From contig OZ024741.1 in assembly GCA_964016885.1 (NCBI GenBank), forward strand, positions 148,614,001-148,678,000: a stretch of DNA of 64,000 bases, read 5' to 3'. Every line of letters starts with the position of its first letter. Position 1 is the stretch's first letter. A program made the translations under genes and the position numbers. Source of the DNA: Eledone cirrhosa (lineage: Eukaryota). Of this stretch, positions 32,565 through 63,636 are shown one piece after another. Below the pieces are notes generated by a model. The model did not search any database. It worked only from the letters and a program-made list of their open reading frames with translations, and was not told the DNA's origin.

Positions 32565-32913
32565 TTCGTTTCTGAATTTGTTTAGCAAGATTCTTTATCT
32601 GAAATCGTGTGTTGAAACCGATATTGTTATACTTTGGGAGGGTCATGTTGCCATTTTCTGGCGTAGGATAGAAGAAAGGAAAGGCACAGAAACGAAGAAA
32701 GAAATCCCCAGTCACTGAAGAGGTCACAGAGTGTGTGACGAAAGAACTATGACTATATATATATAAACAACTATCTGGTTGTGGAACCAACCAACCAACC
32801 AGAAATTTATAAATTTGTAAATTTATAAATATATATTAAATTAAATTGAAGTGAAAGCAACTGGTGCGTGTGTTTCTTATTGGCAACATGACCCTCCCAA
32901 AGTATAACAATAT
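32565..32913 (+). mobile_element. Penelope-like non-autonomous island with a perfect 33-bp inverted repeat
   Basis: 32621-32653 is the reverse complement of 32881-32913. A second family copy lies at ~38020-38500. Confidence 0.75.
32710..32754 (+). ncRNA. Minimal type I hammerhead ribozyme
   Basis: AGTCA-CTGAAGA-G-GTCACA gagtg TGTGAC-GAAA-GAAC-TA-TGACT: 5-bp helix I, 6-bp helix II, minimal helix III. Confidence 0.7.
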
Positions 32914-35882
32914 ATATATATATATATGTATATATATATGTATATATATGTATATATATATATGTATTTATATATATGTATATATATATATGTATTTATA
33001 TATATGTATATATATATAGGTATATATATATATATATGTATATATATATATATATATAAGTATATATATGTATATATATATATGTATATATGTATATATA
33101 TAAGTATATATATGTATATATATATATGAGTATATATATATATGAATATATATGTATATATATATATGTATATATATATATGTATATATATATGTATATA
33201 TATATATGTATATATATATATGTATATATATATATGTATATATATATATATATATATATATGTATATATATATATATATGTATATATGTATGTATATATA
33301 TATATATATATGTATGTATATATGTATATATATATATATATGTATATATGTATGTATATATGTATATATATATATATATGTATATATGTATGTATATATA
33401 TATATATATATATATGTATATATGTATGTATATATGTATGTATATATATATATATATATATATGTATATATGTATGTATATATATATATATATATATATG
33501 TATATATGTATGTATATATGTATATATGTATATATATATATATATATGTATATATGTATATATATATATATATGTATATATATATGTATATATATGTATA
33601 TATATATGTATATATATATATATGTATATATATGTATATATTTAAAGGAACGATCGACTTTCGTCAAATCGGACCGAGGGAACAATGTTTCCGTTGGTCT
33701 TTCCAATTGCTAATACTATCTATCGGTCGCAACTCCAGGTAGAAGGAGCAACGTGAAATAAAGTGTCTTGCTCAAGGACATAACGCATCACCTGGTCCAG
33801 GAATCGAACTCACAACCTTACGATTGCGAGAATCCAATTCCCTAACCACACAGCCACACGCCTTCACCTATATATATATATATATATATATATGTATATA
33901 TATATATGTATATATATATATGTGTATATATATATATATATATGTATATCTATATATATATATGTATATATATATATATGTATATGTATATGTATATATA
34001 TATGTATATGTATATATATATATATATATATGTATATGTATATGTATATATATATATATATGTATATATATATATATATATATATATGTATATATATATA
34101 TATATATGTATATGTATATGTATATATATATATATATATGTATATGTATATATATATATGTATAAATATGTATATATATATATGTATAAATATGTATATA
34201 TATATATGTATAAATATGTATATATATATGTATATATATATATGTATAAATATGTATATATGTATATATATATATGTATATGTATATGTATATATATATG
34301 TATATATGTATATGTATATGTATGTATGTATATGTATATATATATATGTGTATATGTATATGTGTGTATATGTATATATGTATATGTATTGTATGTATAT
34401 GTATATATATATATGTGTATATGTATATGTGTGTATATATGTATATGTATATATATGTATATATGTATATATGTATATATATATGTATATATATATATGT
34501 ATATATATGTATATATATATATGTATATATATGTATATATATATATGTATATATATGTATATATATATATGTATATATATGTATATGTATATATATGTAT
34601 ATGTATATATATATATGTATGTATATGTATATGTATATATATATATGTATATGTATATATATATATGTATATATATGTATATATATATATGTATATATAT
34701 GTATATGTATATATATATATGTATATGTATATATGTATATATATGTATATATGTATATATATGTATATGTATATATATATATGTATATATATATATGTAT
34801 ATATATATATATGTATATATATGTATATGTATATATATATATGTATATATATATATGTATATATTTGTATATGTATATATATATATGTATATATATATAT
34901 ATGTATATATATATGTATATATATATATATATATATGTATATATATATATATATATGTATATATATATATATATGTATATATATATGTATATGTATATAT
35001 ATATGTATATATATATATATATATATGTATATATATATATATATATGTATATATATATATATGTATATATATATATATGTATATATATATATATGTATAT
35101 ATATTTATATATATGTATATTATATATGTATATATTTATATATGTATATATATGTATATATGTATATATTTATATATATATATATATATATATATATATA
35201 TATATATATATATATATATATAACGAAGGAAATGTGGTAAGGGACCAGGTGTACCACAACGCACCAAAGTACTCAATACTTGGGGTAGTAGATCCAGAAT
35301 TAGCCGTCGAAACGGCTTGAGCTCAGCTGTCGGGGTCTTACTGGTTCCTATATATATATATATATATATATATATATATATATATATATATATATATATG
35401 TATATATATATATATGTGTATATATATTTATATATATATATATGTGTATATATATTTATATATATATATATGTGTATATATATTTATATATTTATATATG
35501 TATATATATGTATATATATATATGTATATGTATATATATATATGTATATATATATATGTATATATATATATGTATATATATATATGTATATGTATATATA
35601 TATATATGTATATATATATATATATATATATATATATGTATATATATATATATGTATATATATATATATGTATATATATATATATATATATATATATATA
35701 TATATGTATATGTATATATTTATATATGTATATATTTATATATGTATATATATATATGTATATATATGTATATGTATATATATATATGTGTATATATATG
35801 TATATGTATATATATGTATATGTATATATATATATGTGTATATATATGTATATGTATATATTTATATGTATATATATATGTA
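32914..35882. repeat. (TA)n/(TG) arrays with small islands at 33642-33868 and 35222-35348
   Basis: Directly visible. Confidence 0.95.
33744..33867 (-). mobile_element. tRNA head plus CORE portion of a SINE
   Basis: Reverse strand reads GTGAAGGCGTGTGGCTGTGTGGTTAGG..GAGTTCGATTCC..CCTTGAGCAAGACACTTTATTTC. Confidence 0.8.
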
Positions 35883-36643
35883 TACTCTTTTACTCTTTTA
35901 CCTGTTTCAGCCATCCGGCTGAGGCCATGCTGGGCACAGCCCTTGTTGCTACACATTTTATCTCCAGCCTGTATAGGTTGGCCACTGGTGTAGGAGGGAG
36001 TTTGTTGCTGCTGCCCTTAGGTTTCCCTCGTGTCTTGCTGTGGGCTCATCCGGGATCCTGGATAACAAGGTGTCGAGATGTTTCTTAAAGACATCCACCT
36101 CCACGTCTTCGCTCCAAGGAGTAGAGGTTCAGTTCCTTCAGCCTCTCCCAGTAGCTTGTCTCCCTCATCTTGGCAATCCTCTTGGTGTAGCTTCGCTGGA
36201 TTGCCTCAAGCTCTGTGGTTAGTTTGACACTATGGGGTGACCACAGCTGGGAGCAGTAGTCCAGGCGGCTTAGGACAAAAGTCCTCCACAGTGTCAACAT
36301 GGTGTCTCGATCTCTTGTAAGGAAAGTCCTCAAGATCCAGCCAGCGAATCGTCTACATGCTGTCGCCACCTTCATGATGTGTGAAGAAAAAGATGCATCA
36401 TCGCTCATGTCTATGCCCAGGTCTCGTATCGATTTTGACACGGGGATATCGGTCCCTCCTGGTCCTGTGTAGCTGTGTTCCGCTATATTTGTGTTTGTGT
36501 TTGCAGGTTTGTATTGTAGGGCTTGGAATTTGCCAGCATTAAACTGCATGTTGTTTTCTTCCGCCCATCTGTATATGGCATCCAGATCCTGCTGTAAGAG
36601 GGCAGCGTCAGCCGGGTTTTTGATTGCCTGTGCTACCTTAGTG
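35883..36643 (-). mobile_element. CR1-like LINE 3' fragment with internal deletion
   Basis: [64 protein letters not shown]. Tail CTGAAACAGG(TAAAAGAG)n. Confidence 0.9.
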
Positions 36644-37356
36644 CTATATATGTATATGTGTATGTATATATATGTATATGTATATATTTATATGTATATA
36701 TATGTATATATATATATATATATATATATATATATATATACACATATAAATATATACATATACATATATGTATATGTGTATATATATATATGTATATGTG
36801 TATATATATGTGTATATGTATATGTGTATATGTATGTGTATATATATATGTATATGTATATGTGTATATATATATGTATATGTGTATATATATATGTATA
36901 TGTGTATATGTATATGTGTATATATATATGTATATGTGTATATATATATATGTATATGTGTATATATATATATGTACATATATATATGTATATGTGTATA
37001 TATACATATGTATATGTGTATATATATATATATGTATATGTGTATATATATATGTATATGTGTATATATATATATGTATATGTGTATATATATATATGTA
37101 TATGTGTATATATATATATGTATATGTGTACATATGTATATGTGTATATATATGTGTATATGTGTATATATATATATGTATATGTGTATATATATATGTG
37201 TATATATATATATGTATATGTGTGTATATATATATATATATATATATATATATATATGTATATGTGTATATATATATATATCGAGATCGTGTAGGTGTCA
37301 CGAGAAAAAAACACAGTCCACGCTGTAATGTGGCCGTGGAGGTAATACAGAAAAAT

Positions 37357-62500: not shown

Positions 62501-62799
62501 TGTATATATATGTATATATGTGTATATATATGTATATATGTATATATATATGTGTATATATATGTATATATGTATATATACATGTGTATATATATGTATG
62601 TATGTATATGTATATATATGTATATATATATGTATATATATATATATGTATATATATATATATATATATATATATATATATATATATGTGTATGTATATA
62701 TATATATATATATATATATGTGTATGTATATGTATATATTATATATATATATATATATATATGTGTATGTATATGTATATAAATATATATATATGTATA
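59576..62799. repeat. 3.2-kb interrupted (TA)n/(TG) microsatellite
   Basis: Directly visible, with a local 24-bp unit at 62130-62225. Confidence 0.97.
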
Positions 62800-63037
62800 T
62801 CATCATCAACGTTTAACGTCTGTGTTCCACGCTTGCATGGGTTTGGACGGGGGTATTCCCACTTGAAGCAAGAGTGATTGTCTTGCTCGCATAGGACTGT
62901 CTGGCAGGTTTTCTACAGTTGGATGCCCTTCCTAACACCAACCACATTTACAGTGTGGGTCTGGGAGGTTTTTACTGTGTTCCCTACATGGCCACATTAC
63001 AGCGTGGACTGTGTTTTTTTTGTCGTGACACCTACAC
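62800..63037 (-). mobile_element. RTE LINE 3'UTR-only insertion
   Basis: Matches 39348-39593. Confidence 0.92.
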
Positions 63038-63054
63038 GTATATATATATGTATA

Positions 63055-63636
63055 TAAATGTAAGTATGTATGTATACATACATACATATATGTATACAGA
63101 CGTACTGTAGCATGCATATATATATATATATATATATATATATATATACATACATACATATACATATATACATACAGGTACACATACATATATGCACGCA
63201 TCAGTTTAGCGGACGCTTATTATAACGCCGCTTTGTTCGTTTGTAAACAAAACTGAACAGCCTGAATTTATGCCATACGGTGTTAAGGCAACCACGTCAC
63301 CTTTTTGTTCAACACTGACACAGGAACGATGTACTAGTTTCAAGCTTGTTAGCTATCATCAGCACCGTTTACCCATCTGCCAGATAGTTGAACGTTCGAA
63401 AGTATATACTTTCCATATGAAAATTAACGGCTGAGCAGCCTAATTTGCATATTGAGTGAGTTAAATCGGTCAGGCATACCGAAAACGAAATTTCATTTCT
63501 CACTCTTAGTATGGCACTTACTTAAATGTAAGTATGTATGTATACGTACATACATATATGTATACAGACGTACAGTAGCATGCATATATATATATATATA
63601 TATATATACATACATATACATATATACGTACAGGTA
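63055..63636 (-). mobile_element. Tandem (468-bp period) non-coding element with one hammerhead per unit; retrozyme/pLTR-like
   Basis: TAAATGTAAGTATGTATG.. recurs at 63055 and 63523. Other family pieces lie at 43510-43930 and 47640-47782. Confidence 0.75.
63325..63369 (-). ncRNA. Minimal type I hammerhead ribozyme
   Basis: AACGGUG-CUGAUGA-U AGCU aaca AGCU U-GAAA-CUAG-UA^CAUCGUU: 7-bp helix I, palindromic helix III ACUAGU, U.U at 10.1/11.1. Confidence 0.7.

Follow-up and report, generated by a model that had tools for sequence, protein, structure and literature searches.

Penelope-like 3' ends, and a tandem retrozyme with a possible U6-type promoter, as the likely source of hammerhead-bearing islands in (TA)n arrays of Eledone cirrhosa

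Hammerhead-bearing, (TA)n-targeting Penelope-like elements (PLEs) of the Hydra clade are already published for Octopus: the entry for Hydra-1_Obim of Octopus bimaculoides names (TA)n as preferred target and notes a hammerhead (Craig et al. 2021, PMC8557442). Single hammerhead motifs from truncated PLEs and pairs of motifs on opposite strands were described in 2014. For the mobilization of animal retrozymes, PLEs figure in print only as a "strong candidate," and retrozymes seem promoterless according to a 2020 review (PMC7761336). We analyzed a window of 64,000 nucleotides (nt) from Eledone cirrhosa (assembly GCA_964016885.1, contig OZ024741.1, positions 148,614,001 to 148,678,000 of the forward strand), in which small islands of sequence lie between long (TA)n arrays. 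An earlier note on this DNA had read the islands as a community of non-autonomous, ribozyme-processed retroelements. Our analysis makes it very probable that they are mostly 3' ends left over from seven or more protein-coding PLE families, with one non-coding tandem retrozyme family besides, all within (TA)n and likely inserted by PLE enzymes. The main observation is thereby known biology, scattered hammerheads in such genomes being mostly PLE stubs. Three things are new here, none of them found in print: a retrozyme of a cephalopod whose insertions show PLE signatures directly, a putative U6-type promoter module common to unrelated retrozyme families, and a very large hammerhead count. A literature search, subscription papers and bioRxiv supplements aside, turned up nothing on retrozymes of cephalopods or on retrozyme promoters of the U6 type, and ribozymes go unmentioned in the main text of the O. 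vulgaris repeat annotation.

The hammerhead motifs are real, but several window copies are decayed. A recognizable core was present at all 11 positions given in the earlier note, far above chance. A strict descriptor of the type I fold matched 4 times in the islands beyond 21 kb, against a mean of 0.04 in 100 dinucleotide shuffles, and a relaxed one 6 times, against 0.02 in 200 shuffles (maximum, 1), an excess of 100- to 300-fold. Of the 10 motifs listed between 32710 and 63369, 7 pass the strict or the relaxed descriptor (32715+, 52063-, 54536+, 54960-, 55314+, 59441+, and 63362-, numbered by core position), and 38259+, 48963-, and 53574+ fail both. Helix I of 38259+ carries two substitutions relative to its own family (family A). 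In family B, 33 of 39 copies have CCGACGA as the core, and the CUGA of the window copy at 48963-, which arises by a C-to-T change, is rare (2 of 39). At 53574+, the helix II hairpin is approximately 115 nt long (z -6.0) and two unpaired bases precede GAAA. The eleventh motif, 6364-, has lost GAAA to AAAA. The relaxed descriptor also recovered a motif at 44132- that had been overlooked. The interval from 32.5 to 63.6 kb holds 24 elements that are 100 nt or longer, of which 10 bear a motif, so that "most" islands was an overstatement; at least 10 of the others are pieces of RTE long interspersed elements (LINEs) or short interspersed elements (SINEs).

Chance matches in AT-rich sequence are a virtually untenable explanation of these motifs. 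It draws on the fact that a fold clearly more stable than in shuffled sequence was seen only for 53574+, for 52063- (z -2.0), and for 48963- (z -2.1), a motif that was partly covered, and that no window motif attains a gathering score in Rfam. A comparison of the entire window with Rfam gave only sub-threshold microRNA-like matches, which fell on TA arrays, and the tRNA-like head of one SINE; neither family F nor the repeat at 27430 had a match. The descriptor excess refutes the idea, and against it stand also the fixed position of the motifs near PLE ends and the 18 relaxed matches, against 0.8 in shuffles, in 400 kb of other sequence (40 stretches of 10 kb at fixed coordinates on eight large contigs).

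Every island represents a single copy from a repeat family, and these families have 335 to 24,418 first-look candidates in the genome, the upper figure being that of family P. The earlier note had counted at least seven flank families, and we found eight among the listed motifs in that interval, or nine with 44132. Nine of the 10 motifs lie in 5'-truncated 3' ends of seven autonomous PLE families (A to F and P), the window fragments being 84 to 100% identical to the family units. The suspected link to PLEs was borne out, as all seven families continue into an open reading frame (ORF) of the reverse transcriptase (RT)/GIY-YIG type. In other copies, six of them hold intact ORFs of 758 to 1,167 amino acids (aa), and that of family B is partial (Table 1). 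An ORF was located within 1.5 kb in 17 of 20 loci of A, 12 of 25 of E, and 7 of 25 of B; C, D, F, and P were linked to theirs in long stretches. It lies 54 nt upstream of the stretch corresponding to 38042..38499 in 17 of 20 loci of A, 332 nt ahead of the cut site in E (P0003), approximately 1.2 kb upstream in other copies of B (P0007), and, by its stop codon, 2.9 kb before the ribozyme in F (L242; L-numbers denote other genome loci, and P0002, P0003, and P0007 denote ORFs). The D ORF was present in 4 of 4 long loci, and the top copies were 100% identical. Loci of B and F contain other long ORFs, which were rejected as family ORFs; they belong to a nested LTR (long terminal repeat) retroelement and to RTE LINEs.

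By motifs and alignment, B, C, D, E, and F are probable members of the Hydra clade. The alignment gave the motifs by which Craig et al. (2021) define it, namely RW[RK], DKT-type, CxCX5C linker, and CxxC/CxH on either side of a conserved E/N, without CCHH: RWR or RWK in C, D, E, and F, DKT in B, C, D, and F, and DRT in E. The N terminus of B is missing in P0007, a copy whose last linker Cys is replaced by Tyr, and reads MRWK in L249. Family A has a CX4CxxC linker with CCHH-type residues, and family P has DKG with CCHH-type residues and no clear CxxC linker; both appear to be endonuclease-positive (EN+) PLEs of clades other than Hydra. They were compared with the Neptune, Nematis, and Poseidon clades, which are marked by CCHH in the endonuclease and a CX2-5CxxC linker. 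Pfam recognized RVT_1 and GIY-YIG in P; the other families, with weak or no matches, were called from motifs and alignment. With the published Hydra-clade PLEs (PMC8557442), families B to F share a C-terminal GIY-YIG, RW[RK], DKT, the CxCX5C linker, the lack of CCHH, a type I hammerhead near the 3' end, and (TA)n targets, the likeness of the proteins to Hydra-1_Obim being judged by eye. Named relatives of one PLE protein include Argonauta hians. They differ in comprising at least five families that are very young (up to 100% identity), in units of up to 6.6 kb where "generally <3 kb" is given, and in odd ribozymes, namely the 115-nt helix II and the CCGACGA core. With the hammerheads described in 2014 the motifs here have in common palindromic helices III, the U3-A8 variant, many families per genome, a prevalence of single motifs, there called "probably related to truncated PLEs," and pairs on opposite strands 100 to 700 bp apart.

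The ends of the elements are as regular as their starts are irregular. Each PLE family stops at one or two fixed positions 60 to 230 nt beyond the ribozyme cut site and then runs into TA repeats. The (TA)4+ run follows directly in 18 of 20 loci of A, 23 of 23 of B, 18 of 24 of C, 25 of 25 of D, 25 of 25 of E, 21 of 23 of F, and 18 of 18 of P (loci without the anchor motif, 2 each in B, F, and P and 1 in C, were dropped), against 2.3% after random positions and 0 of 5 sampled RTE 3' ends. The proposed TA targeting is supported. Two 3'-end classes, as expected of a PLE tail, were seen in A, D, E, and P, and a single main end in B, C, and F. The 5' ends are staggered within families, as expected of truncation. 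Tandem units occur in A, C, D, and P, and inverted pairs in B, C, D, E, F, and P; the 54960-/55314+ pair reads as one insertion with a 5' inversion.

In the mechanism we propose, a GIY-YIG endonuclease would nick TA DNA, reverse transcription would begin at fixed internal RNA sites, and its early stop or fold-back would leave short ribozyme-bearing stubs and inverted pairs. Because the stubs derive from PLE families, the diversity of ribozymes would be the diversity of those families. Each window copy has a single ribozyme per strand, so that no ribozyme-to-ribozyme circle can be released, and solo stubs are probably inert. Poseidon_Ac behaves similarly in vitro, with AT-rich cleavage and two internal start sites of reverse transcription that yield a "tail" (Frangieh et al. 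2024, PMC11167929). AT-rich targets, two ends, and a ribozyme near the ORF start are common to both; the tails are approximately 45 to 160 nt here and 30 to 40 nt in Poseidon_Ac, whose insertion does not need ribozyme cleavage.

The idea that all islands are independent, non-autonomous elements of the retrozyme type, moved by one Penelope enzyme, is now very unlikely. The window copies are indeed non-coding, ribozyme-bearing, and TA flanked, short stubs were commoner than full-length copies among the loci examined, and one family (G, described below) fits the idea fully, as families K and I may. For A, B, C, D, E, F, and P, however, it is refuted by their own ORFs upstream. Their staggered 5' ends are a truncation pattern, fewer than one-fifth of their motifs have a same-strand neighbor within 700 nt (142 of 164 in G), and with units of 3 to 6.6 kb they are not short non-autonomous tandem units. 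What survives of the non-autonomous community is therefore G and, probably, K; seven of the eight listed families are autonomous PLE 3' ends. The enzyme at 58582, to which the mobilizing one had been likened, is itself a remnant: its ORF, at 58585, retains no more than the final 155 residues of the family P protein (Pfam GIY-YIG, E = 1.8e-7); as predicted from its sequence, this endonuclease-only, 5'-truncated fragment would be unable to mobilize anything. Some points tell against our own account of the islands: the autonomous partner of family I was not found, and the loci are the best-scoring 20 to 25 per family out of hundreds to thousands of candidates, in samples that contain the window copy and include a few overlapping loci.

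The tenth motif belongs to family G, which, judged by its sequence, would be the only true non-LTR retrozyme among the listed motifs between 32710 and 63369; 6364- (family K) is a probable second one, decayed. G is a non-coding tandem unit of 465 to 520 nt with low GC content and an internal microsatellite. It occurs as blocks of 1 to 6 units and as arrays of more than 10 kb, and its exact 32-nt core has 10,672 copies in the genome (control, 0). The window copy has a single ribozyme. Against Rfam, the G ribozyme scored below gathering (HH9, E = 0.047). Covariation, which the earlier note had named as a test, was found in 9 of 15 pairs that change on both sides across seven G-type ribozymes (0 of 500 shuffles), a count that comes from related sequences and is no probability. 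The G circle is predicted to be highly paired (68%).

Insertions of G resemble those of the PLEs. Its 3' ends fall into two classes, approximately 0 to 6 and 57 to 66 nt into the next unit, and run into TA; an inverted 5' arm was present in 12 of 24 distinct insertions. Since G has no ORF, forms arrays of 1 to more than 20 units, and bears a PLE-like end signature, it likely borrows a PLE enzyme, and we infer that insertion would be PLE driven from a multimeric or circular RNA template. One observation counts against this: G shows no similarity to the seven autonomous units compared, its own nested insertions apart. An endonuclease fragment upstream of G in L179 and L191 was considered as a partner and rejected; it belongs to the target, and G is inverted at the junction.

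Differences between G units are mostly 0 to 3% within arrays and 5.3% between loci (two values are inflated by mis-cut segments), a similarity that is unable to separate rolling-circle from multimer templates. It could be argued that most of the array growth was local, a PLE terminal repeat having expanded in tandem through unequal crossing-over with no RNA step of its own, a route proposed by Li et al. (2026, 10.64898/2026.07.22.740005); arrays beyond 10 kb, mixed unit lengths, and internal divergence of up to 3% would suit it. As a general explanation it is improbable, because most G insertions are dispersed blocks of 1 to 6 units that stop at fixed 3' positions in TA and show 5' inversions, and because no homology links G to the PLE ends compared. 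Local expansion may nevertheless lie behind the long arrays. Like metazoan non-LTR retrozymes (Cervera and de la Pena 2020, PMC7229834; Li, Clavereau, and Pollet 2026), G is non-coding, low in GC, and tandem, with a canonical type I hammerhead and a circle predicted to be highly paired. It is unlike them in its 465- to 520-nt unit, internal microsatellite, and U6-type box, and in that PLE-type tail ends, inversions, and TA targets are directly visible in the absence of homology to the PLE ends compared. With a retrozyme bearing PLE end signatures beside young PLEs with intact ORFs, retrozyme mobilization is now testable.

A 12-nt box lies upstream of the G ribozyme, and the same box was found at -77 to -79, with a TATA at -30, in host U6 (three independent loci), the top U6atac match, and RNase MRP. 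It was not found at six U1, four U2, and the RNase P genes, nor in three further scored U6 copies and eight further U6atac matches, several of them visibly truncated or microsatellite flanked; seven U6 copies were left out of the scoring. With up to two mismatches, the box precedes 148 of 164 G, 20 of 24 G2, and 14 of 21 G3 motifs (background, 1%) and none of the scanned A, C, E, P, or I motifs; the family K motif is also preceded by it. An octamer 80 to 100 nt ahead of the core was confined to tandem families. Genome-wide, the box-then-core pattern gave 20,662 matches against 1 in the control, including families unrelated to G. Two further box-TATA-hammerhead families (L389, L391, L392, and L390) have no BLAST similarity to G; one of the two shows an inverted two-arm insertion. 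Counting 30 nt from the TATA places the predicted start approximately 16 nt before the core, where helix I begins, so that box and TATA, just ahead of the ribozyme, are predicted to start transcription at the first helix. G and the unrelated retrozyme families would then carry a host U6-class promoter and could start their own transcription. The comparison supports a U6-class, PSE-like box with TATA and led us to reject a U1/U2-type promoter for G, since the box is missing from U1 and U2 genes, whose motif near -57 is AATCAGT. This U1/U2-type motif, in place of the U6-type box, also precedes the gene for RNase P RNA (L388).

We tentatively propose, as an idea still short of probable, that retrozymes captured a host U6-class promoter ahead of the hammerhead and that Hydra/Neptune-type Penelope enzymes paste the unit into (TA)n, in several unrelated families and tens of thousands of copies. 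If true, U6-class capture and PLE pasting would supply animal retrozymes with both a promoter and a mobilizing enzyme. Difficulties for the promoter part lie in spacing and termination. The box-to-TATA distance is 41 to 44 nt in G, G2, G3, and the two further families and 47 to 49 nt in host genes (47 nt in K). Runs of six or more T stand at 77 of 139 G unit ends (overlapping loci counted), and because arrays and the long 3' end pass through them, the fit to plain polymerase III (Pol III) termination is poor. Downstream of the predicted start, 330 nt are free of T4 (P = 0.08 in shuffles), while arrays cross T6 to T13 runs.

The same difficulties leave room for a different view, which we also consider possible without calling it probable: the octamer-like box, which includes the octamer ATGCAAAT, could serve as a POU/Oct enhancer or be no more than a dead relic, and transcription of G could come from Pol II or from read-through. 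The spacing, 3 to 6 nt short, and G multimers that traverse T6 to T13 runs suit it, and newt satellite 2 is cited elsewhere as having a small nuclear RNA (snRNA)-type Pol II promoter. Against it stand the identical box at -77 to -79 with the TATA at -30 in U6, U6atac, and RNase MRP and its absence from U1, U2, and RNase P, as well as the joint retention of box and TATA in families that are otherwise dissimilar. Newt satellite 2 (snRNA-type Pol II) and schistosome Sm-alpha (Pol III) are cited as tandem hammerhead repeats with a promoter inside the unit (PMC2220036, PMC6765202), a layout that G would share. The motifs here differ in that they match host U6, U6atac, and MRP (type 3 Pol III) and not the host U1/U2 promoter. 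Conservation of a U6-type module across unrelated families makes retrozyme transcription testable as well.

The 400-kb sample corresponds to approximately 43 hammerheads per Mb, or roughly 1e5 per 3.0-Gb genome, an estimate from a small, clustered sample with a descriptor that misses the B, D, and F ribozyme types. The 2014 description gave 2,000 to 9,000 per genome, and for axolotl 120,000 were reported in 28 Gb, a figure that the estimate for 3 Gb approaches. A loose genome-wide core pattern (508,386 matches; control, 65,934) was rejected as a copy number because it counted overlapping matches. In the window, six island matches in the 43 kb beyond 21 kb are about 3 times the genome-sample rate, and (TA)4+ runs make up 39% of that part against 4.4% in the comparison stretches, about 9 times as much. 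The window is thus a TA-rich hotspot and not a special locus.

Table 1. Features of the window. Hydra-type and retrozyme labels are predictions; cores and cuts are window positions
Feature	Coordinates	Strand	Hammerhead	Remarks and full-length relatives
Family A PLE 3' end	32561..32913	+	core 32715, cut after 32749	inverted tail piece 32561-32653; 92% and 100% to full-length unit in L041 (1167-aa RT/GIY-YIG ORF); tandem unit, cut site to cut site, 4,071 nt
Second family A 3' end	38042..38499	+	core 38259, helix I decayed	42-nt insert matching LINE end 35883-35928
Family I 3' end	43984..44188	-	core 44132, U3-A8	
Family B Hydra-type PLE 3' untranslated region (UTR)	48779..50264	-	core 48963, atypical	86-94% to L249 unit; partial 664-aa frame P0007
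Second family B 3' tip	48239-48318			
Family C Hydra-type PLE 3' end	51875..52499	-	core 52063	4,862-nt tandem unit, 916-aa ORF P0002
Family D Hydra-type PLE 3' end	53554..53772	+	core 53574, ~115-nt helix II	6,559-nt tandem unit, 830-aa ORF
Family E Hydra-type PLE 3' end	54492..54625	+	core 54536, U3-A8	927-aa ORF P0003
Family F Hydra-type PLE 3' end	54836..55243	-	core 54960	758-aa ORF in L254
Inverted 5' piece, same family F insertion	55264..55374	+	core 55314	98-99% to other arm
Family P PLE, 5'-truncated: GIY-YIG fragment and 3' UTR	58585..59579	+	core 59441, minimal	3,158-nt tandem unit, 905-aa ORF in L044
Family G non-LTR retrozyme, ~1.2 monomers	63046..63610	-	core 63362, cut after 63332, canonical	U6-type box 63451, TATA ~63408
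Family K	6327..6441	-	core 6364, decayed	box -77, TATA -30 from core
5'-truncated G-related retrozyme piece	43639..43941	+	none	88-98% to G
Another G-related piece	at end of 47187-47753 island			
RTE/SINE-rich islands	19797-21759, 24314-25752, 39351-43523, 57212-58368, others			

Several further repeats were noted. Family H (27430-28181, minus strand) is a 495-nt non-coding tandem repeat of up to six or more units, 98 to 99% identical, with a fixed 3' end in TA, an inverted piece in L275, and a CUGAUGA box; neither descriptor found a complete hammerhead in it, and it has no Rfam match and no U6-type box. Family J (35224-35347) is very abundant (9 matches in the 400 kb). It resembles the 3' end of a PLE and in many cases is folded back on itself; it contains GAAA and UC along with a long helix III, and a matching CUGANGA half was not found. 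In L369, L374, and L386, dispersed U6 or U6atac copies stand directly behind reversed PLE 3' tails of families F and J, a hint that snRNAs may be retrocopied by PLE enzymes as well. At approximately 4700-8000 of L243, a 311-nt tandem hammerhead repeat that lacks the box runs to 11 units. Young RTE LINE copies (86 to 100% protein identity to an RTE ORF) and tRNA-derived SINEs, both of cephalopod types, account for much of the other island sequence in the window, and behind one RTE fragment lies a non-coding island (37282-37972) with long inverted repeats that resembles a miniature inverted-repeat transposable element.

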